Positions 7,744-23,104 of a stretch of DNA of 24,000 nucleotides are shown here, one piece after another. This DNA comes from Bacteroidales bacterium. Its GTDB lineage: Bacteria; Bacteroidota; Bacteroidia; Bacteroidales; P3. The first letter of the stretch is position 1, and every line of letters begins with the position of its first letter. Made by a program: the position numbers and the translations under genes. The DNA lies in assembly GCA_041662185.1 (NCBI GenBank), contig JBAZSY010000007.1, positions 19,924-43,923 of the forward strand, given 5' to 3'. The notes under the pieces are model-generated. The model had not been told where the DNA came from and made no database searches. It saw only the letters and a program-made list of their open reading frames with translations.

Positions 7744-7751
7744 TATCTTTG
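7744..7751 (+). promoter_or_regulatory. Possible -7 box (TATCTTTG) for the large oxidoreductase gene
   Basis: TATCTTTG fits TAnnTTTG and lies 49 nt upstream of ATG 7800. It overlaps the TTG at 7749 used by the ORF track, which argues for the ATG start. Confidence 0.45.
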
Positions 7752-7799
7752 TGCTCGTTTTTCAAAATAACATTTATAATTAACCAAATATATTTAATC

Positions 7800-10700
7800 A
7801 TGTTTAAGATTAACTCACACCCTATCCTCGATATACCTAAGGATAATGAAACATCATTTAAGTTTAATGGCATAGAAATAAAAGGACAAATAGGCTTTAC
7901 TATTGCTGCTGCCCTTCACCAAGCTGGATTCCCTGTTCACTCTCATTCTATCAACGACCGCAAACGTTCTTTAGAATGTGGTATTGGTAAATGTGGAGCA
8001 TGTGAAATGTTAGTTGACGGTTGCGTAAAGAGAATTTGCGTTACTAAAGTTGATGGAGTGAAAGAAGTAAGTGAAATACCTAAAGACTTCTTAGCTGAAA
8101 AATGTTCTATTTCTCAAAAAGAAACTAAAATTTATAAAACTCAAGTATTAATAGTTGGAGCTGGTCCTGCGGGTTTAGCTGTAAGAGAAGAGTTAAATAA
8201 GCTTGGCATTAAGAATATTGTTGTTGATGCTAATGATAAAATAGGTGGACAATTCCTTATGCAAACTCACCAATTCTTTTTCTTTGAACAAGAAAAGAAG
8301 TTTGGAGGAATGAGAGGCTTTGATATAGCAACAACATTAGCCGGTGAATCTAATGAAGGCATTTTCCTTGACTGTTCTGTTTGGGATATATTGAAAGGTA
8401 ATAGAGTTGGGATAAAGAATACTCTTAATGGTGAAATATTTTATATTGACACAGAGCATTTAGTTGTTGCAACTGGTGCTGTTCCTTTTATGCCTGTATT
8501 TAAAAACGATGACCTTCCTGGAGTTTATTCAGCTGCTGTTGTTCAAAAGATGATGAATTCAGAGCTAACTCTTTTAGGTAAAAACATATTAACTGTTGGT
8601 GCTGGCAATATTGGTTACTTAACTTCTTATCAAGCTATTCAAGCTGGAGCAAAGGTTGTAGCAATATTAGAAGCTATGCCAAATGAAGGAGGTTTCCCTG
8701 TTCAAGCAAATAGAGTAAGGCGTTTAGGCATTCCAATTCTTACTTCTACTATTCTTTTAGAAGCAATACCAAATGAAGATGGAACAGGAATTAAAGGGGC
8801 TGTTATTGCAGACTGCAAGAACTTTGAACCAATTCCTGGAACCGAAAGAGTGGTTGAAGGAATTGATGTAATTAATGTTTGTACTGGTTTAATTCCCGAC
8901 AATCAACTCTTAACTAAAGGCAATGTTCTATTTGGAAAGAATTGTCATGGAGTTGGAGATTCTGTAAGGATTGGAGAAGGAACATCTGCTGTGCTTAGAG
9001 GAAAACAATGTGCTTATGAAATAGCTCAAATGCTTAACGTAAGATATAATTACGATGATTATTTAGATACAAGCAAGAGTTATATTGAATCCCAACAACA
9101 CCCTATTAGGATAATAGAAAAAGCTTATAGCCCTAATCAAGAAAGAATGGATAAGCGTAGTTTTGTACGTTTGGAATGTTTGTATGGCTTTGCTTGTAAT
9201 CCTTGTCAATTTGCTTGTAAGTATGGAGCAATAACAAAAAGCTCAACATCCGTTGTTCCTGAAATAGATTACAATAAATGTATAGGCTGTATGGAATGCG
9301 TTAATCAATGTCCTGGCTTAGCTATTTTTGGATACAACACTAAAAAGAAACAAGTTTATCTTCCATTTGAATATGAAGTAGAAGAAGGAATTGATGTATT
9401 CTTAGTTGATAATAATGGAAAGAAATTAGCTACTGGAAGAATTGAAAAGATAAAGAAAAACGAAAACAAGACTTCTGTTGCAAGAATTAATGTAAGTGAT
9501 ATTGAAGAAAAAGACTTATTAAATATCAAAGGGTTTATAGTTCCTGATAAATTCCCAGAAGCATTAGAGTTTTCTCTTTTAGAAGAAATAGATGAAAAGA
9601 CTTTTGTTTGCCATTGTGAAGATGTGTCATTAGAAAGATTATTAGAACAAATTGGAGATAGAAAGATCATATCTGTTGATGAATTAAAGCATACAACAAG
9701 AATGGGAATGGGAGATTGTAGAGGCAAACGTTGTATTCCAAGAGCAAAACAAGTTCTTCGCTCTTATGGAATAGAAGTAACTGATGACGCAACCCCAAGA
9801 GCCCCTCTTTCAAATCAATTATCACTTGGAGAGTTAAGAAACTATGAAAAGAAAGATATATTTATTGCATATAATACAAAGAAGGTTGAGGTAAAGAGTT
9901 TAATTGCAGGAGGAGGTATTGCAGGAAGTTCATTATTTAGATATATGTCAGAAGCTGGTTTAGAGCCTATTCTAATAAACTATGATAGAGGAGCTTCTTG
10001 GCGTAATATAGCAGGAGGTCGTCCTGCCTTTTCAAATCCAGAACTTGCCGACATAGCAAAGCATAACCATGAATTGTTTGTTGAACTTAACAAACAATCA
10101 AATATAGATTACTATCCAACAAGATATGTAAACCTTGCTCATGATGAAACATCTTATAAAGGATTGGAAGCAGCAATGAAATGGTCAGATGCTTATATGG
10201 TTTCTCCGAAAGACTTCCAAAAAGAAATATCACCTTACTTCAATAAAGATAATACCGACTATATAGCAGCCCAAATAACAAATCAATGCTGGCAAGCTAC
10301 TCCTGGAAAGACAATTGATTTATTAAGATTGATTGGAAAAGAAAACAAAGGTCAAGTTATTGAAGGAGCAAAACTAATAGAACTAACAAAAGAAGGAAAG
10401 AAATTCCATGCCCTTGTTAAAAGAGGAAACGAATATACAGAATATATAACAGATATATTTGTTAATGCCTTAGGCTACGGAGCAGAAAAGTTTGCAAAAC
10501 AAATAGAAATAGAAACAGGTCTTTATCCAGTAAAACACCAAGCATTTATAACAAAACGCTTGCCGATGTTAGGAAAAGAAGGTAATATATTAGATATGGT
10601 AATAGACCGTCGTCAATATAAAGGCTTCTCTTCAATCTATGGACAACAGCTACATGAAACAGGACAAATAATAGGTTGCGCTTCCCCAATGTTTGACTCT

Positions 10701-11012
10701 CAAGAAGCATCACAAGAACTAAAGGTAACATCTCTTGAATTCTTAGAAATAGCATCTGAAATATTCTCAAACTGGATACCAGAACTAAAGAACGTAAGCT
10801 TCCAAGCCGTTTGGTCAGGCTACTACACAGAGCCAAGATACATAGTAGATCCAGAATTAGGTTTATTTGTAGGAATGCGAGGTCATGGCTTTATGCTTTG
10901 CCAATACATAGCAAAACTATATGTTGATAAACTCTTAGGTAAAGAAACCCCAACCTATTTCGACAAACTAAAACTCAGCAGAGAAGGAATCTCCGAAACA
11001 GCATTAAAATAA
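7800..11012 (+). CDS. Multi-domain Fe-S flavoprotein oxidoreductase: [2Fe-2S] + FAD/NAD(P) disulfide-reductase fold + 2x[4Fe-4S] ferredoxin + BFD-like [2Fe-2S] + DAO-type FAD dehydrogenase
   Basis: The Cys cluster CGIGKCGAC..C....C is at 7977-8039. Dinucleotide loops are VGAGPAG (8154-8174) and VGAGNIG (8595-8615). Ferredoxin motifs are CNPCQFAC (9195-9218) and CIGCMECVNQCP (9279-9314). BFD-like motifs are CHC (9609-9617) and CRGKRC (9717-9734), and a third Rossmann loop GGGIAG lies at 9909-9926. I place the start at ATG 7800 (MFKINSHPIL...) rather than the track's TTG 7749. Confidence 0.8.
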   Translation: MFKINSHPILDIPKDNETSFKFNGIEIKGQIGFTIAAALHQAGFPVHSHSINDRKRSLECGIGKCGACEMLVDGCVKRICVTKVDGVKEVSEIPKDFLAEKCSISQKETKIYKTQVLIVGAGPAGLAVREELNKLGIKNIVVDANDKIGGQFLMQTHQFFFFEQEKKFGGMRGFDIATTLAGESNEGIFLDCSVWDILKGNRVGIKNTLNGEIFYIDTEHLVVATGAVPFMPVFKNDDLPGVYSAAVVQKMMNSELTLLGKNILTVGAGNIGYLTSYQAIQAGAKVVAILEAMPNEGGFPVQANRVRRLGIPILTSTILLEAIPNEDGTGIKGAVIADCKNFEPIPGTERVVEGIDVINVCTGLIPDNQLLTKGNVLFGKNCHGVGDSVRIGEGTSAVLRGKQCAYEIAQMLNVRYNYDDYLDTSKSYIESQQHPIRIIEKAYSPNQERMDKRSFVRLECLYGFACNPCQFACKYGAITKSSTSVVPEIDYNKCIGCMECVNQCPGLAIFGYNTKKKQVYLPFEYEVEEGIDVFLVDNNGKKLATGRIEKIKKNENKTSVARINVSDIEEKDLLNIKGFIVPDKFPEALEFSLLEEIDEKTFVCHCEDVSLERLLEQIGDRKIISVDELKHTTRMGMGDCRGKRCIPRAKQVLRSYGIEVTDDATPRAPLSNQLSLGELRNYEKKDIFIAYNTKKVEVKSLIAGGGIAGSSLFRYMSEAGLEPILINYDRGASWRNIAGGRPAFSNPELADIAKHNHELFVELNKQSNIDYYPTRYVNLAHDETSYKGLEAAMKWSDAYMVSPKDFQKEISPYFNKDNTDYIAAQITNQCWQATPGKTIDLLRLIGKENKGQVIEGAKLIELTKEGKKFHALVKRGNEYTEYITDIFVNALGYGAEKFAKQIEIETGLYPVKHQAFITKRLPMLGKEGNILDMVIDRRQYKGFSSIYGQQLHETGQIIGCASPMFDSQEASQELKVTSLEFLEIASEIFSNWIPELKNVSFQAVWSGYYTEPRYIVDPELGLFVGMRGHGFMLCQYIAKLYVDKLLGKETPTYFDKLKLSREGISETALK

Positions 11013-11027
11013 AATTATCGGGAAAAA

Positions 11028-11048
11028 ATGGGCGAAATTTTCGCCCAT
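11028..11048 (+). terminator. Hairpin terminator after the oxidoreductase gene
   Basis: ATGGGCGA-AATT-TCGCCCAT forms a perfect 8-bp GC-containing stem with a 4-nt loop, 16 nt after the stop. It isolates the downstream cassette. Confidence 0.7.
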
Positions 11049-11139
11049 AACCTTTTATAATTTATTATGAGCAAATTAATAATAAAGAGTATAATAATAT
11101 AGATAATAATAGGGTTGGTTTTAAAATAAATAGAATAAT

Positions 11140-12189
11140 ATGATAGATATAAATGATTATATAAAAGGCAGAAAATGTTTCCCTGTAATGAGTTTGAATC
11201 ATCAGATAATTGAGAAATTAGAAAAGCTAGATTCTATAGGGATAAAAAACCTAATAGAAAAAGGCCTAAACAAAACAATAACTTTTACAGAATTTCAAGA
11301 ATCCATAAAGAACCCAGCAGAAATAAAAAAAGAAATATCAGATGAAAACCATTCGATTGATAGCATATTCTTATCTGCTGCATATTGCCAATTTCTTTGG
11401 ACAATAAGTTATGTTGCATTAAATGTGTATGATTGTAACAATGTTAACGATGAACTAAAAAATAATCCAACATATAAAGATGATTTAATCAATGAACGTG
11501 AACATGCAAATAAAATAATAGTAAATATTTCAAGTAAAGAACTAAAAGAAAAGTGCCTTGAAGTCATTAATAAAGTAGATCACATATACAAATACATAGA
11601 TAAAGATAAGGTTTTTAATGAATGTCATGATGTTTTTATTGAAGGTATGAAATTAACTGATAAAAACAACACGAAAATAGATATAAAAAGGTATTATGAA
11701 TTAACTAGTGTTTTTACAAAAGGCAATGAAAAGGTTAATGGAATTTATCTTTATGCAGTATTATTTGTGTTGATTCATGAAATACAACATTTTTCATTAG
11801 AACATCTGGAGTCAACAATAGATAATGAATTTGAAGCTGATAGTGCATCTTTTTGGACTTTATTTTCGGATGTAGAAGAAAATGAAAAAACTACTGCCAA
11901 TATAGGAGTATTGGTGGGGTTATGCTCTCTTATATTTATTAATGATCTAGATGGTGGTGGTACACATCCTGATAATGATGATAGAATAATGGAAGTATTA
12001 AAAAATATAATTGAAGAAAATCCTCACTATACTGGTCTTGTTACAACGATATTCAATATGTGGGCTTATTATTATGACGTTTTAGAAATACAAGAACTTC
12101 AGAATAATACATATAATAGTGATAGAGACTATTTAGATGAAATACTTGGAATATGTAAAAAGATAAAAATAAATAAATATGGATGCTGA
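11140..12189 (+). CDS. Hypothetical protein with a minimal gluzincin signature (HExxH ... ExxAD ... HPxxxxR); predicted Zn metallopeptidase of M48 / ImmA-IrrE / Lit-like type
   Basis: The 349-aa ORF carries HEIQH at 11776-11790 (aa 213-217), EFEAD at 11827-11841 (aa 230-234) and THPDNDDR at 11962-11985 (aa 275-282). I recognise no motif in the N-terminal ~210 aa. Its stop overlaps the next ORF's start by 11 nt. Coding status is solid, but the functional call is motif-level only. Confidence 0.6.
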   Translation: MIDINDYIKGRKCFPVMSLNHQIIEKLEKLDSIGIKNLIEKGLNKTITFTEFQESIKNPAEIKKEISDENHSIDSIFLSAAYCQFLWTISYVALNVYDCNNVNDELKNNPTYKDDLINEREHANKIIVNISSKELKEKCLEVINKVDHIYKYIDKDKVFNECHDVFIEGMKLTDKNNTKIDIKRYYELTSVFTKGNEKVNGIYLYAVLFVLIHEIQHFSLEHLESTIDNEFEADSASFWTLFSDVEENEKTTANIGVLVGLCSLIFINDLDGGGTHPDNDDRIMEVLKNIIEENPHYTGLVTTIFNMWAYYYDVLEIQELQNNTYNSDRDYLDEILGICKKIKINKYGC

Positions 12190-12955
12190 TTACAAAAGTT
12201 TATTTTTAAATATTCTAGGAGGTGCATTACTTATCATACTAGATAGATTGTGGTTATACTTTAAACATAAATTTAATTGCTTACGCTACAAATGGATTTT
12301 TGGGAATGGTATTAATAATGATTTTAGTATTGTCTATGCTAAGTTTAAATTAAAACCAATTTTCAAAGAAGATGATTTCAATTATTGTAAGCCTGGAAAT
12401 GGTAAATTGCATTTTAAGATATCTGAGGTTGTATCTTTTACAGAGACAAAATCTGCAAAATACATTTCTGATTCAATAGCGAAAAATACAAAACATGCAT
12501 CGAAAATAATTTCAGACAATGAAATAAAAGATAAGGTAAATATTTCTTATTGTTCATTAGGAGGGCGTAGTAATTATAAAACTAATGATATTTTAGATGC
12601 TGATAATAATTACTATTTCAATTTTGATATTGATAAATCTCAAATTTCTTCAAAGATTGACTCTTCAAAATCATTTCCAATAAATAACGATTACGATTAT
12701 GCTGTAATAATTAAATTAAAGAATAAGTCTTTCCCTGACAAAACACAAATCTGTGTTGCTGGTCTAGGAGAGTGGGGTACAAGCGGGGCATCATGGTTTC
12801 TTGCTAATAAATGGAAAATACTATTGAGAAAAGCGTGGTGTAGAGAATTTGGATGTGTGATAAGAGTAAAACATGGGAAAGATGAATCTGCTGAAATAAT
12901 AGAGATGATTACTTATAAGGATTATAAACGTTTTATTAATAGAACTAATAAATAA
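12179..12955 (+). CDS. Hypothetical membrane-anchored protein (1 N-terminal TM helix plus an alpha/beta domain with LOG/SLOG-like Gly loops)
   Basis: The 258-aa ORF has a hydrophobic helix SLFLNILGGALLIILDRLWLYF at aa ~7-28. Strand-loop motifs are NISYCSLGGRS and TQICVAGLGEWGTSGASWFLANKW (GLGEWGT at 12761-12781). It is translationally coupled to the upstream ORF through ATGGATGCTGA. The function is unknown. Confidence 0.55.
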   Translation: MDADYKSLFLNILGGALLIILDRLWLYFKHKFNCLRYKWIFGNGINNDFSIVYAKFKLKPIFKEDDFNYCKPGNGKLHFKISEVVSFTETKSAKYISDSIAKNTKHASKIISDNEIKDKVNISYCSLGGRSNYKTNDILDADNNYYFNFDIDKSQISSKIDSSKSFPINNDYDYAVIIKLKNKSFPDKTQICVAGLGEWGTSGASWFLANKWKILLRKAWCREFGCVIRVKHGKDESAEIIEMITYKDYKRFINRTNK

Positions 12956-12983
12956 CTTATTTATAGTTTGTTTTATTAATAAA

Positions 12984-13008
12984 GAAAAGCCCTCTCTCGG
13001 GGCTTTTC
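12984..13008. terminator. Bidirectional hairpin terminator between convergent genes
   Basis: GAAAAGCCC (12984-12992) and GGGCTTTTC (13000-13008) form a perfect 9-bp stem with a 7-nt loop. The flanks are A-rich on one side and T-rich on the other. It sits between the stop at 12955 (+) and the stop at 13049 (-). Confidence 0.8.
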
Positions 13009-13048
13009 TTTATTTTCTTCTTCAATCTTTTCCTTGAAACATAACCAT

Positions 13049-13486
13049 TTAGTTTGTAATTCTTATTTCTTTTATAATTGTTTCTATTTCATCTATTAAT
13101 TCAGGTAAAAAGGATTGGTCTATTCCGTAATTAATCACTAACATTGATTCATACATATCATGTGTAGAATTATCAAAATCTATATAATTCATTTTTATGG
13201 TTGCAGCGATATTTCCCAATTCTAATTGTTTAAAGTAAACTTCAAGTTGTCTTTCTATTAGTTGAAACTTTGCTATCTTTATTTTATTCTCATAAAGTAA
13301 ATTCAACTCTTTTAGGAAGTTCTCAAAACAAATCCTATAGTCTTCTATATCTCGCAAAGCTTTATAAAAGGCATAAGAAATACTTGAGGAAAATCTAATC
13401 TTTTGTTCTTCTTCGTTATCAAAAGAAAAATTAGATAATTCCATTACAAGCTTTCTGTTTTTATCATAAAAATGTATTGCATTCAT
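13049..13486 (-). CDS. Hypothetical protein (145 aa, acidic, predicted mostly helical)
   Basis: An intact ORF in an intergenic-free context with no family motif that I recognise. It is rich in E/D/I/L and has heptad-like stretches (KELNLLYENKIKIAKFQLIERQLEVYFKQLE). Confidence 0.55.
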   Translation of the reverse strand: MNAIHFYDKNRKLVMELSNFSFDNEEEQKIRFSSSISYAFYKALRDIEDYRICFENFLKELNLLYENKIKIAKFQLIERQLEVYFKQLELGNIAATIKMNYIDFDNSTHDMYESMLVINYGIDQSFLPELIDEIETIIKEIRITN

Positions 13487-13593
13487 AATTAATCTACTAT
13501 TTGAAGTATTCCATAATATTTTTCCCTTCTCTAATCTTCTTTATTTATTACTTGAAAAATCACCCCCTAATCAGAAACAACACTAATATAAAC

Positions 13594-14277
13594 TTAGTTT
13601 GTGAACTTAAAAATATTTTTTCTAGATTCAGGCAATGTAATTTGTATTATATTATCAACTAATTTAATTCCTTTAAAAGTGAATTTTAAATACTCATCAT
13701 AAAATTCTATTATATTACCATGCTCCTTCCACTTACCTTCTGAGATTTTATAAAATTCTCCTCTTATTACATAACTGCCATCTTTATTAATGTTTATTGT
13801 AGTATAGTTATAGTTTGAATATCTCCCACAATTTATTTTTTCTTCAGAGGTATCAATATCAAGTATTTCAGATTGATTATTAGTAGGCTTAATATCATAA
13901 TCCAGCTCTAGTTTATCTAATTCTTCTTGAAGTGTTACTCTGTGGCTAAATAATATAAATCGTTTATCGGCCAAGAATACTGGACACTTGTTTCCTGATA
14001 ATATAATAGAATCTTCTTTTCTAAAAACCATTTCAAAACCATATTTATCATCTTTAAGAATTAATAAATCATCATTTGTTATATAATTGCCTGATGAAAA
14101 AGAAGAAGCTAATATAAAGTCTTCTGTCATATGTTCAGTGAATGAAATTTGATACCTATTTTGGTTAAAGGCTAAATTCAATGAAGATATACCATCCTTA
14201 AAATTATAAATATAAGATTGAGGATACAAATGTAATGAAACAAGTATAAAGACAATTGTAAATAATATCTTTCTCAT
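13594..14277 (-). CDS. Hypothetical secreted protein (227 aa) with N-terminal signal peptide
   Basis: MRKILFTIVFILVSLHLYPQS is a typical signal sequence, with no lipobox Cys. The remainder is beta-rich and Y/N/K-rich, with no recognisable catalytic motif. Confidence 0.65.
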   Translation of the reverse strand: MRKILFTIVFILVSLHLYPQSYIYNFKDGISSLNLAFNQNRYQISFTEHMTEDFILASSFSSGNYITNDDLLILKDDKYGFEMVFRKEDSIILSGNKCPVFLADKRFILFSHRVTLQEELDKLELDYDIKPTNNQSEILDIDTSEEKINCGRYSNYNYTTININKDGSYVIRGEFYKISEGKWKEHGNIIEFYDEYLKFTFKGIKLVDNIIQITLPESRKNIFKFTN

Positions 14278-14348
14278 ATTAAAAGGTAATAATAATTCAG
14301 CGGGTAATTAAATTAACGAATTCTATTGCAAAATATTTTACTTATCCT

Positions 14349-14792
14349 CTATTCTTCTTTATTTTCTTCTTCCAACATTTTCTTGGTTACATAACCTTTT
14401 GGTATTGGTTTTTCTTTGGTGTACTTCATTTCTTTAAGGGTTTGAACCAATTTTTTGTCAGCTCTATAACTTACTTTGCTGAATTTTACTTTCTTTGGGT
14501 CTAATTCTTTTTCTGTTGCAAAGCCTTTGCTGGTTATGGCTACTCCAAACACTCCTATTCCTTCAAGCTTTACTTTAAAGCCATCAGTTAGCATTTCTTT
14601 CATAAGGGTTGAAAGTCCCATTAAAGTGGAATGAATATCTCCTTGAGTTAAGGAGGAACGATATGAAAGTAATTCTGCTAACTCTCCTATTTCAACCATA
14701 CGTGTTGATTTGGAAATTGCATAATAGGCTTCTTCAAAAACTCCTTCTTTGTTTTTGAACTTCTTTTTTCTTGCACGATATTGATAAGACAT
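14349..14792 (-). CDS. HU-related histone-like DNA-binding protein (Bacteroidales HU_rel type)
   Basis: The 147-aa ORF has ...YYAISKSTRMVEIGELAELLSYRSSLTQGDIHSTLMGLSTLMKEMLTDGFKVKLEGIGVFGVAITSKG...VKFSKVSYRADKKL. This matches the pattern of the Bacteroides 'DNA-binding protein, histone-like, putative' family as I recall it. Confidence 0.8.
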   Translation of the reverse strand: MSYQYRARKKKFKNKEGVFEEAYYAISKSTRMVEIGELAELLSYRSSLTQGDIHSTLMGLSTLMKEMLTDGFKVKLEGIGVFGVAITSKGFATEKELDPKKVKFSKVSYRADKKLVQTLKEMKYTKEKPIPKGYVTKKMLEEENKEE

Positions 14793-14872
14793 AACTACTT
14801 GGTTTTAAATTATAAATATTATTTACCTTGATTTTGATTCAATATAATAAGGTTTCTATAAATTTAAACGCC

Positions 14873-14909
14873 ATATAAAACTCAAAAGATGCTATCCAAA
14901 ACTATTTTA
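14873..14909. repeat. Left arm of a 37-nt imperfect inverted repeat (pairs with 15097-15133)
   Basis: ATATAAAACTCAAAAGatgcTATCcAAAACTATTTTA matches the reverse complement of the right arm at 32 of 37 positions (hand alignment). The arm contains an outward-facing TAGTTTTG (minus strand, 14897-14904), a -7-like box pointing at the HU-like gene. Confidence 0.85.
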
Positions 14910-14997
14910 ATAGGCTTTGAAACTCAAAAGTCTTATTTAAATGTTATTGAGCTATATATATCCATATAACGTAATAGTATATTTAAATATTATTTAG

Positions 14998-15089
14998 ATG
15001 TACATTTAAGCAATGCTAAGATGTACATATAAGTAAGTGTTAAATGTACATTTAAATAATGCTAAGATATACATCTCAACAACATTTAG
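14998..15089. repeat. Four head-to-tail 23-bp tandem repeats, each starting with a palindromic ATGTACAT-type core
   Basis: The copies are ATGTACATTTAAGCAATGCTAAG (14998), ATGTACATATAAGTAAGTGTTAA (15021), ATGTACATTTAAATAATGCTAAG (15044) and ATATACATCTCAACAACATTTAG (15067). A degenerate partial copy precedes them (about 14976-14997, ...TATATTTAAATATTATTTAG). Confidence 0.9.
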
Positions 15090-15096
15090 ATAACGA

Positions 15097-15133
15097 TAAA
15101 ATAGTTTTAGATAAGGACTTTTGAGTTTTATAT
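15097..15133. repeat. Right arm of the 37-nt imperfect inverted repeat
   Basis: TAAAATAGTTTTAGATAAGGACTTTTGAGTTTTATAT is complementary to 14873-14909. It carries TAGTTTTA (15102-15109), one base off a -7 box, pointing rightward. Confidence 0.85.
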
Positions 15134-15344
15134 CCTATCTTCTTAGGTTTATATGGGCTTTAATCTTGGTTAGATCGACTTTTATTGTGGCTATATTAGA
15201 TTAGAATTTGGTTTGGTTATACTTTATTTGGTTATGTTATATTTATTTGCACAACACGTAGAGGAAGGGCTTACATCTGCCGATATAAATATTGAGATAT
15301 AGATTGTTGTATAATTATATTAAAGTAACATTATCGTAATCTGG

Positions 15345-15378
15345 AAAGATAATCAAAGGAGAATCGCTGATTATCTTT
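15345..15378. repeat. Perfect 11-bp inverted repeat (AAAGATAATCA / TGATTATCTTT) with 12-nt loop
   Basis: Read directly from the sequence. It lies 140 nt upstream of the histidine kinase ATG. It could be an operator or an RNA hairpin, and no T-tract follows. Confidence 0.5.
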
Positions 15379-15410
15379 ACAAATATTACATCCTTACTAA
15401 TTGTATGATA

Positions 15411-15445
15411 TTTGGGTGCAAGTTTGATTATTTATTGTACTTTTG
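15411..15445 (+). promoter_or_regulatory. Possible promoter of the HK-RR operon (-33 TTTG, -7 TACTTTTG)
   Basis: TACTTTTG at 15438-15445 fits TAnnTTTG and lies 70 nt upstream of ATG 15516. TTTG at 15411-15414 is 23 nt upstream, slightly longer than consensus spacing. Confidence 0.4.
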
Positions 15446-15515
15446 CATTAATCTAATGTTTATTCATCTTAAATATAACAAATAGCATTTTAAGTTAACT
15501 CTCATATTTCAAAAT

Positions 15516-16535
15516 ATGTATAAGAATAAATTATATAAGACTGCGCTTTTATCTTCTCCTATTATGGCAGCATTTGAGTTGTCTCCTATTTTTTTCCTGC
15601 AATCACCAGAATATCCACTGAATTTTTGGTTTTCATTTACAACTTTAACTATTCTAACAATAGTTATTTGGGGAGTGAATATCTATGTGGAAAGCATATG
15701 GGTAAGTAGTGGCAGAAAAAACAACATTGAATGGTATTCATTGAGTTACATTTTTATATTACTTTTGTTTGCATTGTTGTGGATCGTATTACATCTTTTC
15801 ACTGAATTGGATAATAATAGAAACAGACCGTCGATTTTATTTCCAATAATCAATATTCTCACTCTCAACACTATTATATTGATCATATCGAATGCAATTA
15901 TTGTCAGATCAAAAAGAGAACAAGCCGATAAAGAATTAACTGAATTGAAAATAAAGAATTTAGAGGCAGAACAACAGGCACTGGTAAGTCAATTGCAACC
16001 TCATTTTTTATTTAACACACTAAGTACCCTTAGTTCTATTATAAGTACCGATTCTGATCTGGCTAAAAAATATGTTATCAGGCTTTCAGATTTTCTGAGA
16101 TATACGATATCCGCCAACGAACACGTGCTTATTCCTCTTTCTGAAGAATTGAAATTTACACAGGACTATATTGAACTTCAGAAATTACGATTTGAAGACT
16201 CCTTTTATTGTTCGATTACTGTGGCTCAGGAAAAGATAAATCAGTACCAAATTCCTGTATATGCTCTCCAATCGTTAGTAGAAAATGCATTTAAGCATAA
16301 TTCGTTTAGTTACGAAAAACCACTAAAGGTTAATATTGAATTAAAAGATGATTTATTGATCGTATCCAACAATAAAATGCCCAAGCCCATGTTTTTGGAT
16401 GAAGAAAGAAATGGTATCGGACTTAAAAATCTCAACAGAAGGTATCAATTGATAGTTGGGAAAGACATAGATATCAAAGACACCCAAACAGAATACACTG
16501 TTATACTTAAATTGATTAAGACAACACAATTATGA
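15516..16535 (+). CDS. Sensor histidine kinase, LytS/YehU-type (multi-TM sensor + His_kinase + HATPase)
   Basis: The 339-aa ORF has about 4 N-terminal TM helices and a coiled linker (LTELKIKNLEAEQQAL). The phosphoacceptor region is LQPHFLFNTLSTL and the N-box is LVENAFKHN. The stop overlaps the RR start (ATGA). Confidence 0.9.
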   Translation: MYKNKLYKTALLSSPIMAAFELSPIFFLQSPEYPLNFWFSFTTLTILTIVIWGVNIYVESIWVSSGRKNNIEWYSLSYIFILLLFALLWIVLHLFTELDNNRNRPSILFPIINILTLNTIILIISNAIIVRSKREQADKELTELKIKNLEAEQQALVSQLQPHFLFNTLSTLSSIISTDSDLAKKYVIRLSDFLRYTISANEHVLIPLSEELKFTQDYIELQKLRFEDSFYCSITVAQEKINQYQIPVYALQSLVENAFKHNSFSYEKPLKVNIELKDDLLIVSNNKMPKPMFLDEERNGIGLKNLNRRYQLIVGKDIDIKDTQTEYTVILKLIKTTQL

Positions 16536-19985: not shown

Positions 19986-22900
19986 ATGACTATTACAGAA
20001 CTATCAATAAAACGGCCGTTACTAATAATAGTAATATTTGTAACATTAATACTTTTTGGTATTATAGGGTATAACTCTCTTAATCTTAATTTGTTGCCAA
20101 AATTCACAACAAATATGATAACTGTTAGTACAACTTATAGGGGTGCTTCGCCAGAAGAAGTACTCACAAGTGTTACCAAACCATTGGAAGATGCTCTATC
20201 TTCGGTTGAAGGGATAGATGCAATAAGCTCATCCTCGCAAGAAGGATACTCTTCAATAACATTGGAACTGCTTAATAGTGTCAAGTCCAGCGATGCACAA
20301 TTGGATGCGGAAAGAAAAGTGAAACAGGTTTTATCAACTTTGCCGGATGATATCGATGAGCCTGTAGTAAGTCGAATGAGTGCTGATGATATGCCAATTT
20401 TCAAAATGAGTGTCAGTTCAAATTTAAGCGAAACAAAACTCTATGATTTAGTAGATAAAGATGTTAAACCCATTCTGACCAACATTCCGGTGTGTCGGAT
20501 GTAACCATTATAGGTGGAACGCAAAGGCAAATTAATGTAGATATTGATAATAACAAGCTTAAAGCTTATAAGCTTTCTTTATTAGATGTGAACACAGCTG
20601 TTGCTGCGAGTGGAGCTTCTTTCCCAGGTGGAAAAATTGAAAACAGAACAAGCCGATATTCATTGGATTTGAATGCAAAAGTAAAAACAGTAGAACAATT
20701 GCGCAATGTAGTAATTAGGGAGGGACAGAACGAAAGCCGGATACTATTGAAAGATATTGCTTCTGTAACAGATGGGAAGGAACGAGTTACTACACTAAAC
20801 AGACTAAATGGAGAACCTGCCATTGGTATTCAAATAAAAAAACAAAGTGATGCAAATACAGTAGATGTATGCCGCCGTGCAGCTGAGCGAATGGAAGAAC
20901 TGAAAAAAACTTATGCCACTGATAATTTTAACTATCATATTGCTTCAGATCAATCCATTTATACACAAGCTTCTGTAGATGCCGTGGTGGATGATTTACT
21001 ACTTGCTATTATCATTGTTGCATTTGTTATGCTTTTCTTTCTGCATAGTTTTCAAAGTTCCTCATTTGTATTGGTGGCATTGCCCTCTGCCATTATCCCA
21101 ACATTTATGTTGATGTGGGCATTTAATTTTTCCCTCAATATGATGAGTTTGATGAGTCTATCATTAGTCGTGGGGATTTTGGTCGACGATAGTATTGTGG
21201 TATTGGAAAATATCTTCCGTCATCTGGAAATGGGAAAAAATAAACGCACCGCAGCATTGGATGGCCGTAATGAGATAGGATTTACCGCTTTAGCTATTAC
21301 CATGGTAGACGTAGTCGTATTTCTCCCTCTCGGTTTGGTCAGCGGTATGATTGGAAATATTGTAAGAGAATATGCTTTTGTGGTGGTATTCTCCACATTG
21401 ATGAGCCTGCTGGTTGCCTTTACACTTACACCTTTGTTGGCATCCCGCTGGGGGAAACTCATACACCTCAGCAAAAATAGCTGGTGGGGGAGACTGAATA
21501 TCTGGTTTGAATCACTCATTGACAGTTTTCGTGAGTTTTACACCAAAGTACTTCTATTAGCTTTAAATCATAAGCGTTCCGTAATACTAATTGTATCAGG
21601 TCTTATCTTAGGAAGCATTGCATTAATTCCGGCAGGATTTGTAGGGACGGAACTAATGCCACAGTCTGACCGCGGTGAATTGAATATACAAATAGACCTC
21701 GAAGGAAATACTCCATTAAAAGAAACGAATGCGAAAATAGCCATAGTAGAGGGAATTATTATGAAACATCCCGAAGTCGTAAATGTTTTTTCAAACGTGG
21801 GAACTCAATCAGGCGCAATGGGTAGTTCTTCATCAAATAGCAATCTTGCTGAGATATCTATAATGCTGACAGATGCCAATAAAAGAAAAATGAGTACCAT
21901 TGAATTTGGAAGAGTCATAAGAGAAGAAATTATGCAAGTAACTGGTGTGAAACCTACTATTAAATCAGTTGGTATGACCGGTAATGCAAGCTTTGATATT
22001 CAAATGGCTGTTGAAGGAACAAATCGGGACTCCATAATGAAAACTGCTGCAATAGTCAAGAAAATCATGGAAAAAACGTCGGGTACTGATTACGTACAGT
22101 ACAGCACCAAAGAATCAAAATCCCAGGTATCTGTCATTCTTAACCGTGAAAAGATGGCCAAATACGGTGTAAAAATAAACGATGTAGGAAGTGCTGTTCA
22201 ATATGCCTTCAGTGGCAATAACAATGCCAGATTCAAAGAAAACGGAGAAGAATATGACATAAATTTGCAAATAGATGAATCCAACGCAAAAAGCATAAGT
22301 GATGTAAAAAAATTCAACATTTACAATTCCAGAGGTGTAGTGGTTCCATTGGAAGCTATTGCCGACATTACAGAAACAACAAGCCAGTCGGTATTAGAAA
22401 GAAAGGACAGGCTTAACTCAATCACCGTTAATGCTGTTGCAATAGGTCGTCCTTCGGGAAGTATCAGTTCTGAGATCAAGGAAAAACTTACAACTATTAA
22501 ATTGCCGGTTGGTGTACAGGTTATGGAATCTGGTATGGGAAAAAATCAAAATGACGCATTTTCCAGCTTATTTCTGGCTGTAGGATTAGCTATTATATTG
22601 ATGTACTTGATTATGGTGGCATTGTATGAAAGCCTAATCTATCCTTTTGTTGTTTTATTCTCACTTCCTGTTGCTATCATTGGGGCAATATTAGCACTGG
22701 CACTTACTTTGAAAACAATCAATCTGTTTTCTATTTTAGGTATTATAATGCTTCTTGGGCTGGTAGCTAAAAATGCCATTCTTATTGTAGACTTCGCTAA
22801 TCAGGAAAAAGAAAAAGGTCTGTCGGTAAGAGAAGCCCTAATTGCAGCCGGTCGTGAACGTTTACGCCCAATTTTAATGACAACTTTTGCCATGATTTTG

Positions 22901-23104
22901 GGCATGTTGCCTATGGCTCTTTCAACAGCCGCAGGTTCAGAATCCAAAAATGGTATGGCATGGGTAATTATTGGAGGTCTAACAAGTTCTTTGATATTCA
23001 CACTTGTTTTAGTTCCGGTTATGTACACAATTATCGAGAAATGGAAAAATAAAATAAATGACAGATTTAGGAAAAAACAAACCAAGAAAGTCTCAACAAC
23101 TTAA
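19986..23104 (+). pseudogene. RND efflux permease (AcrB/HAE1-like) interrupted by a 1-nt frameshift at ~20490; fragments 19986-20504 (172 aa) and 20492-23104 (870 aa)
   Basis: The N-terminal fragment (MTITELSIKRPLLIIVIFV...) ends ...LTNIPVCRM*. The next frame continues (V)SDVTIIGG... Inserting one G after CCGG (20487-20490) restores ...LTNIPGVSDVTIIGG..., the conserved RND motif, and gives a ~1040-aa protein of normal length. Confidence 0.85.

Follow-up and report, generated by a model that had tools for sequence, protein, structure and literature searches.

Organization of the ORF A-ORF B locus

We analyzed a stretch of 24,000 nucleotides from a Bacteroidales bacterium (GenBank assembly GCA_041662185.1, contig JBAZSY010000007.1, positions 19,924 to 43,923 of the forward strand), hereafter the window, and in particular a two-gene locus at window positions 11,140 to 12,955. 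A preliminary description, made from the sequence alone, had presented this locus as an insulated and translationally coupled pair, a minimal HExxH zincin followed by a membrane-anchored protein, and had proposed it as a candidate defence module. ORF calling of the window resulted in only two long open reading frames (ORFs) in this region, both on the plus strand and both with an ATG start: ORF A (11140..12189, 349 aa) and ORF B (12179..12955, 258 aa). The two share 11 nt, ATGGATGCTGA, at 12179-12189.

Hairpins bound the cassette formed by the two genes. The left-boundary hairpin (11028..11048, plus strand) has a 9-bp stem with 5 GC pairs (-13.9 kcal/mol, z = -3.1) and was assigned as the terminator of the 1087-aa oxidoreductase gene because it begins 16 nt past the stop of that gene. 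The right-boundary hairpin (12978..13014, both strands) has a 16-bp stem of about -21 kcal/mol, with z = -6.8 and -7.9, and is a bidirectional terminator between ORF B and the convergent gene at 13049..13486 on the minus strand. Six terminator-like sites were counted in 10900-15600, against 0.9 +/- 0.9 in shuffles. The G+C content is 0.268 in ORF A and 0.277 in ORF B, compared with 0.322 in the window and 0.343 in the oxidoreductase gene.

Both ORFs, the 11-nt overlap, the flanking hairpins, the low G+C and all motifs quoted in the preliminary description were each found again in place. Its picture of a self-contained unit bracketed by hairpins was borne out in part: both hairpins are real, but 11048-11139 is not plain intergenic DNA, as it holds the 3' remnant of another gene, now decayed.

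ORF A is a Lit-family protease

The sequence of ORF A identifies it as a zinc metalloprotease of the Lit family (MEROPS U49) with an intact catalytic core, and thereby as a new member of an abortive-infection family that is already known. The Lit-family match covers residues 196-342. Pfam PF10463 (Peptidase_U49) was found at residues 196-288 with 26.5 bits, above the gathering score of 23.9, the PADLOC Lit model matched with an E of 2.2e-12, and NCBIfam NF007238 ('phage exclusion protein Lit') matched with an E of 7.5e-15 and 54.9 bits. The last score is far under the equivalog cut-off of 274; therefore, ORF A was classified as a family member and not as an ortholog of Escherichia coli Lit. 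The pair had been said to correspond to no named system, which does not hold for ORF A, due to its PADLOC and Pfam matches, whereas ORF B is indeed without a model.

For the comparison with E. coli, the K-12 lit gene from e14 was used as the reference, and the query profile comprised ORF A and nine homologs. The hhalign alignment reached a probability of 92.6% (E 4.5e-7) over about 90 columns with 29% identity. Three plus-strand motifs are paired in it: the zinc-binding and catalytic HExxH motif HEIQH (residues 213-217, 11776..11790) with HEISH (160-164) of E. coli Lit, EFEAD (residues 230-234, 11827..11841), which contains the candidate third zinc ligand, with EREAD 181-185, and the U49-core motif HPDNDDR (residues 276-282, 11965..11985) with HPAAYER 232-238. 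Among the 10 ORF A homologs aligned, down to 28% identity, H213, E214, H217, H222, E230, A233, H276, P277, and R282 are invariant, and D234 is at least 90% conserved in the homolog alignment. The HExxH and ExxAD residues H213, E214, H217, and E230, whose conservation the preliminary description had proposed checking, are thus all invariant. It had also named three gluzincin families as candidates, of which the Lit (U49) kind is the one upheld, by the invariant motifs and by the alignment with E. coli Lit.

The ORF A subfamily has ten members, all of which (10/10) carry PF10463. The N-terminal ~210 aa of ORF A had been regarded as an unmatched, possible sensing domain, but the N-terminal ~195 aa are conserved within the subfamily, including the motif LSAAYCQFLW, and the alignment with a plasmid protein of Spirosoma, annotated as 'phage exclusion protein Lit family', extends over residues 59-292. 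Because it is found subfamily-wide, the N-terminal half is part of this Lit branch rather than a private sensing domain. The AlphaFold2 (AF2) model of ORF A, with a predicted local distance difference test score (pLDDT) of 83.7, combines a bundle of helices and a small sheet of three strands. The model had no meaningful fold neighbour in the PDB, and the sequence search of solved structures gave no relative.

The HExxH protease Lit of E. coli stays latent until the Gol peptide, part of the T4 major capsid protein, binds EF-Tu, which Lit then cuts between Gly59 and Ile60 (PMC3014915; PMC13228613). ORF A resembles the Lit of e14 in harboring HExxH, E-x-E-A-D, and H-P-x4-R at similar spacing, and its relatives occur on prophages and viral contigs (17), as lit does on e14. 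The differences are the N-terminal ~195 aa (AYCQFLW), which hhalign did not align, and the operon that ORF A shares with ORF B.

ORF B belongs to a large unnamed family

ORF B is a member of a large unnamed family, and its domain has no detectable relatives in the libraries searched. No Pfam, PADLOC, NCBIfam, or PHROG model matched ORF B, and 54 family members scanned singly against Pfam at E <= 10 gave no consistent family. A word-indexed search returned 104 homologs; the ORF B profile, run against 1.84 billion cluster representatives, returned 1,191 family clusters at E <= 1e-3 and 262 at E <= 1e-30, counted at 50% identity. A narrow pattern scan with one genome per species resulted in 41 loci, almost all in metagenome-assembled genomes, from Bacteroidota, Patescibacteria, Desulfobacterota, Nitrospirae, Chloroflexi, Verrucomicrobia, Planctomycetes, Acidobacteria, Actinobacteria, Omnitrophica, and Ignavibacteria. 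The family is patchy over more than 10 phyla, and its context is variable.

Conservation within the family is strong. G15, G42, D113, N132, G195, G200, G203, W206, and W212 are invariant, and N11, G14, L196, G197, E198, T201, and S202 are at least 90% conserved. The segment AGLGEWGTSGASWFLANKW is near-constant from phylum to phylum, and the loop AGLGEWGTSG is near-invariant. Its core GLGEWGTSG (G195-G203, 12761..12787, plus strand) lies between strand 189-195 and helix 198-210 of the AF2 model, and an LGG loop is located at residues 127-129. A literature search with the GLGEWGTSG motif gave no paper.

The AF2 model of ORF B (pLDDT 92.6, predicted template modelling score 0.87) consists of a helix at 2-41 followed by an alpha/beta domain. 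Foldseek against the PDB and BFVD resulted in nothing at E <= 1e-3; the top matches were BcsB (E 7e-3, template modelling score 0.42) and the N-terminal domains of GH67 and GH115 (about 0.4). The ORF B profile searched against PDB sequences gave chance-level matches only.

Membrane topology and domain swaps in the ORF B family

The single N-terminal transmembrane (TM) helix that the preliminary description had assigned to ORF B was confirmed. Residues 8-26 (12200..12256, plus strand) are hydrophobic, with a Kyte-Doolittle hydropathy of 1.86, lie within the AF2 helix 2-41, and carry N11-x-x-G14-G15. Over the 54 family members, net charge changes from -0.9 in the 15 residues that precede the TM helix to +4.5 in the 15 that come after it. 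This positive-inside bias indicates an N-out/C-in orientation, which places a short tail outside the membrane and the alpha/beta domain, after the TM helix, in the cytoplasm. The longer relatives agree with it, as they start with a signal peptide or a first TM helix and a putative periplasmic domain and then continue into the TM helix and B domain known from ORF B. In P0142 the putative periplasmic domain is T2SS-G pseudopilin-like, in P0005 it is SecDF-P1-head-like, and in L015:436-2508 it is composed of trypsin and TPR, whereas P0126, P0146, and P0168 have domains without a recognised type ahead of the TM helix and B domain. The relatives with trypsin plus TPR, T2SSG, or SecDF-P1-head-like domains suggest envelope-facing variants of the family.

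The commonest layout of the family is one TM helix and the B domain. In P0180 and P0057 (PF10137, CAP12/Pycsar-type) and in P0140 (TIR_2), a TIR domain takes the place of the TM helix, and the B profile continues after it from position ~31-36. P0239 resembles these fusions by eye only, and, also by eye, the fusions of the PF10137 type retain the conserved DNVxFExG segment. A further fusion, L038, joins DUF4062 to B. These swaps of TM and TIR in the ORF B family point to conflict biology.

A TM or TIR module on a constant C-terminal domain is the effector architecture of CBASS, Pycsar, and Thoeris. By analogy with these effectors, the C-terminal domain of ORF B would be a regulatory, ligand-binding module, and the N-terminal TM helix or TIR would be its output. 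The likeness extends to PycTM and PycTIR, TM- and TIR-SAVED, TIR-STING, and ThsA, in which the N-terminal TM or TIR is interchangeable as it is in the B family. On the other hand, no cyclase, CD-NTase, or ThsB gene was found near B, the B domain has no detectable similarity to SAVED, CARF, cNMP-binding, STING, Macro, or SLOG domains, and some members add periplasmic domains before the TM helix.

As a separate observation, the TIR-B fusion P0057 (L162:3959-8040) is followed 326 nt downstream by a 234-aa ORF and then by a NACHT-family STAND ATPase.

Anatomy and mobility of the cassette

A second copy of the cassette, on the locus L047, has 93% nucleotide identity to the window only within 11046-12987, that is, from hairpin to hairpin. 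The flanks of the two copies are unrelated, which indicates that A and B moved together. The ratio of nonsynonymous to synonymous substitution rates (dN/dS) between the two copies, from small counts, is 0.26 for B and 0.65 for A. From this sequence comparison, B is clearly maintained under purifying selection, and A is either fast-evolving or under relaxed constraint, with its catalytic residues intact.

The 92 nt between the left hairpin and ORF A (11048..11139, plus strand), now the ORF A leader, are the decayed 3' end, the last ~30 codons, of a gene that we call U. By eye, the remnant reads PFIIYYEQINNKEYNNIDNNRVGFK in the window versus KPFIFNYEQNNNKEYDLYVDNDRVGFKIKK and a stop in L047. The gene precedes the Lit-like gene in L047:1-384, where it is partial, and in L046:1101-2040, where it is frameshifted (about 311 aa), and it carries a PD-(D/E)xK-like motif, RRPDLIALSNDFMFAIEAKGF (PDLIAL...FAIEAKG). 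It is weakly similar (pairwise E 0.002) to the DUF6946/REase-ARP gene that follows the ORF A relative P0110 (L061:1052-1798). A restriction endonuclease (REase)-like gene thus appears, by sequence similarity, to accompany the Lit subfamily of ORF A in three lineages and may be its recurrent partner. The U gene of the window is deleted up to the terminator.

Co-occurrence of ORF A and ORF B

We fetched 160 loci, comprising 129 B loci and 31 A loci, and searched them with the hidden Markov models of A and B. The ORFs in these loci are simple longest-ORF calls, so that starts and intergenic gaps are approximate. A and B were found together in only two of the 160 loci, the contig of the window itself (L058) and L047. 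None of the remaining 127 B loci had a Lit-like gene, and B was in no other A locus with readable downstream sequence. The homologs of A and B are therefore not syntenic elsewhere, and the proposal of a two-gene module was not sustained.

The closest relative of ORF A, P0106 (89% identity), is adjoined after a 2-nt gap by a B homolog, P0001, which is 92% identical to B. The next, P0107 (61% identity), has no B, and its nucleotide homology to the window ends at 12178, the last base before the ATG of B. The more distant relatives have other neighbours: P0110 (38% identity) is followed by a DUF6946/REase-ARP gene, P0113 (32%) stands alone with PIN_12 and AbiEii genes nearby, P0114 (32%) lies downstream of an AAA_21/RloB pair, and P0112 and 17 IMG/VR contigs (31-34%) have the order hicA, hicB-like gene, lit near phage structural genes. 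To our knowledge, little is known about Lit outside the enterobacterial paradigm. The distinct Bacteroidota and gut-phage Lit subfamily, which combines with HicAB, PD-(D/E)xK-like genes, RloB-type ATPases, or ORF B, offers a starting point for studies of the triggers and substrates of Lit-type proteases in other hosts.

The viral lit cassette (L144-L160 and L045) was also inspected for its layout. It contains hicA (62 aa), the hicB-like gene (130-143 aa), and then lit, with the hicB-like gene and lit overlapping by 4 nt or lying 2 nt apart, and it looks like a phage-borne exclusion moron.

The closest unpaired relatives of ORF B (61% identity) have upstream gaps of 170-215 nt and unrelated neighbours. 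An all-against-all BLASTP comparison of 389 neighbour proteins from 93 dereplicated B loci found no neighbour family in more than three loci, a comparison that would miss very remote homology. No signal synthase (CD-NTase, cyclase, or ThsB-type TIR) was thus a recurrent neighbour in these 93 loci. The Pfam survey of 114 B neighbours was heterogeneous; signal-synthase families were not among the 25 most frequent families listed in it, nor were they found beside the TIR-B fusion. In one tight linkage, a type IIG restriction-modification (R-M) enzyme overlaps B by 14 nt. Elsewhere, B is tightly linked to a DEDDh-BRCT protein (PDC-S48), a DUF4268 protein (PDC-S11), a NOV_C protein, and an RNase H. 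Tight linkages of B are thus often to defence-type genes, which is guilt by association for B and no evidence of a fixed partner.

Proposed explanation and alternatives

We interpret the locus, with moderate confidence, as a mobile cassette of two separable and co-expressed defence-type genes, a Lit-family protease and an autonomous member of the B family that were joined recently. B is taken as autonomous because its family comprises 1,191 clusters, no neighbour family recurs in more than three of the 93 loci, and its closest unpaired relatives differ in context. By analogy with the Lit of E. coli e14, ORF A would remain latent until a phage late protein presents the host target, which it would then cleave, shutting the infected cell down; both the trigger and the substrate are those that we infer for it. 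B would have been joined exactly at the stop codon of A with loss of its own upstream region, a juxtaposition that is probably recent, and the junction would provide co-expression rather than an obligate partnership. Activation of B, whose TM helix has a conserved polar/small N-x-x-G-G face, would lead to helix-helix oligomerisation and, presumably, to membrane damage. A defence function of B is what we infer from its architecture and its genomic neighbourhood, and the assignment of a sensor and an effector part to it is likewise conditional.

Several observations weigh against this interpretation. The 11-nt overlap with the loss of the upstream region of B, and the joint move of A and B into two different genomic contexts, would also fit a functional coupling of the two genes. 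The dN/dS of A together with the loss of U could mean that the cassette is decaying. The periplasmic N-terminal domains of some relatives suggest that B might act as an output rather than a sensor domain, and the strong motif conservation of ORF B, including the invariant D113 and N132, suits an enzyme equally well. The neighbours of B in the 41 genomes are mostly metabolic and transport genes that look like housekeeping, and no B homolog was found by tblastn of ORF B against phage and plasmid collections or by the pattern scan of IMG/VR.

A broader proposal, which we offer only tentatively, is that B represents a widespread autonomous immune family in which a new cytoplasmic alpha/beta sensing domain, recognisable by the AGLGEWGTSG loop, would control a TM or TIR killing module, with Lit adding a second layer. 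In most members the killing module would be a TM helix that associates with itself, in others it would be a TIR NADase, and no dedicated signal synthase would be required. B wired downstream of a Lit-type protease would then form a two-layer abortive-infection unit. Given its TM-or-TIR modularity, the ORF B family can be tested at low cost as a candidate new family of single-gene defence proteins, with a regulatory domain that would also be new.

A and B might instead constitute a true two-component module, in which A licenses B by cleavage, or B recruits or activates A at the membrane; we consider this unlikely. Besides the overlap and the joint move, the shared terminators favour it, and so does the position of B without a promoter region of its own, unlike its unpaired relatives. 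E. coli Lit is reported as a membrane protein in the title of a 1988 paper cited in PMC13228613. Protease-effector modules, in which a gasdermin accompanies a caspase-like or U49 peptidase and Pepco, EACC1, or MBL accompanies a trypsin-, caspase-, or subtilisin-like protease, are a widespread defence logic (10.1101/2025.11.14.688446), and peptidase U49 genes are listed among the proteases beside bacterial gasdermins (PMC9612521); our locus is like these modules in that the protease gene A lies directly upstream of, and is translationally coupled to, the membrane-targeted B. However, co-occurrence is absent beyond the two near-identical copies, relatives of B have no recurrent protease neighbour, and the other members of the A subfamily are alone or by HicAB, AAA_21/RloB, DUF6946/REase-ARP, or gene U. 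In the surveyed modules, the proteases are trypsin-, caspase-, or subtilisin-like and are phylogenetically congruent with their effectors, a congruence that is absent here, and B belongs to none of the ten effector families surveyed (10.1101/2025.11.14.688446). In particular, neither Pfam nor Foldseek identified B as a gasdermin, Pepco, or EACC1.

It is likewise improbable that B has no immune role and is an accessory membrane protein, for example in signalling or in the envelope, that came to lie beside a Lit gene by chance. The ordinary genes around B in most of the 41 genomes and its absence from the phages, plasmids, and viral contigs searched agree with such a role. Moreover, no PADLOC model matches B or, as far as tested, marks a partner system, and the relatives with a periplasmic domain, TM helix, and B domain resemble receptors. 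Against it stand the fusions to TIR (PF10137, TIR_2) and DUF4062, and the defence-type neighbours at several unrelated loci, namely the type IIG R-M enzyme, PDC-S11, PDC-S48, NOV_C, NACHT, and Lit. The sparse and patchy spread over phyla, the variable context, and the G+C, which is low relative to the host, argue in the same direction. Even if B were not immune, it would define a widespread membrane-protein family without a Pfam, NCBIfam, or PADLOC model.

The preliminary description had compared the ORF B loops with those of LOG/SLOG proteins, from which it would follow that the cytoplasmic domain is a divergent SLOG/LOG Rossmannoid domain receiving a nucleotide second messenger, as ThsA does in Thoeris. 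We regard this as highly unlikely. LOG proteins carry a GGG loop followed by PGGxGT, and, on reading the ORF B sequence, a matching order is seen for its two glycine-rich strand-loop-helix motifs, of which S-L-G-G-x-x-N-x-K-T (126-135) comes first and A-G-L-G-E-W-G-T-S-G (194-203) second. The TM and TIR swaps also recall the effector-sensor proteins of CBASS, Pycsar, and Thoeris. However, none of the LOG/SLOG Pfam families was found in the 54 family members at E <= 10, hhalign of the ORF B family profile against the LOG protein PpnN of E. coli gave a probability of 0.1%, and the 50 top Foldseek matches to the PDB listed for ORF B included no LOG, SLOG, ThsA, DprA, SAVED, or CARF structure. The best of these matches is BcsB, and B has no recurrent TIR or cyclase neighbour to make a signal. 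A patatin-like lipase (GGxxNxK, GTSGA, and DESA as oxyanion, GxSxG, and Asp) was dropped, since no Patatin or hydrolase profile was found in the 54 members and the Ser lies inside a helix of the AF2 model and not in a nucleophile elbow.

Other genes of the window

The locus had been placed in an orphan-gene islet, and this was supported, as it lies in a small low-G+C islet beside an orphan immunity-like gene. The low-G+C tract runs on past ORF B to about 14.3 kb. The gene convergent with ORF B (13049..13486, minus strand) encodes a 145-aa WapI-like immunity protein (PF24716, 27.9 bits, cut-off 27) and, with no toxin gene seen in its vicinity, resembles an orphan immunity gene of the islet. The next gene, a 227-aa ORF (13594-14277, minus strand), has a signal-peptide-like N-terminus, MRKILFTIVFILVSLHLYPQ, and no family match; both it and the WapI-like gene have a G+C of 0.251, which makes the 227-aa ORF part of the islet. 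An HU-HIG/HU_rel DNA-binding protein (14349-14792, minus strand; PF18291 4e-20, TIGR01201 above cut-off) is encoded at the islet edge.

Housekeeping genes flank the locus on both sides. Those on one side are der, nadC, cinA, the oxidoreductase gene, and genes of the BrkB-like and PNP-family types, and those on the other encode a LytS-type kinase and a LytTR regulator and include an RND efflux operon. The 1087-aa oxidoreductase (7749-11012, plus strand), listed with a TTG start, has Fer2_4, Pyr_redox_2, Fer4, Fer2_BFD, and DAO domains. Its true start is probably downstream of the TTG, since the public gene call on the same DNA (L058) is 1070 aa long. The AcrB-type RND pump gene (19986-23104, plus strand) is split into a 172-aa ORF (19986-20504) and an overlapping 870-aa ORF (20492-23104). 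The ACR_tran match of the 870-aa ORF starts at profile position 172, which indicates a frameshift near 20495-20504, and this frameshift reflects either a pseudogene or an assembly error.

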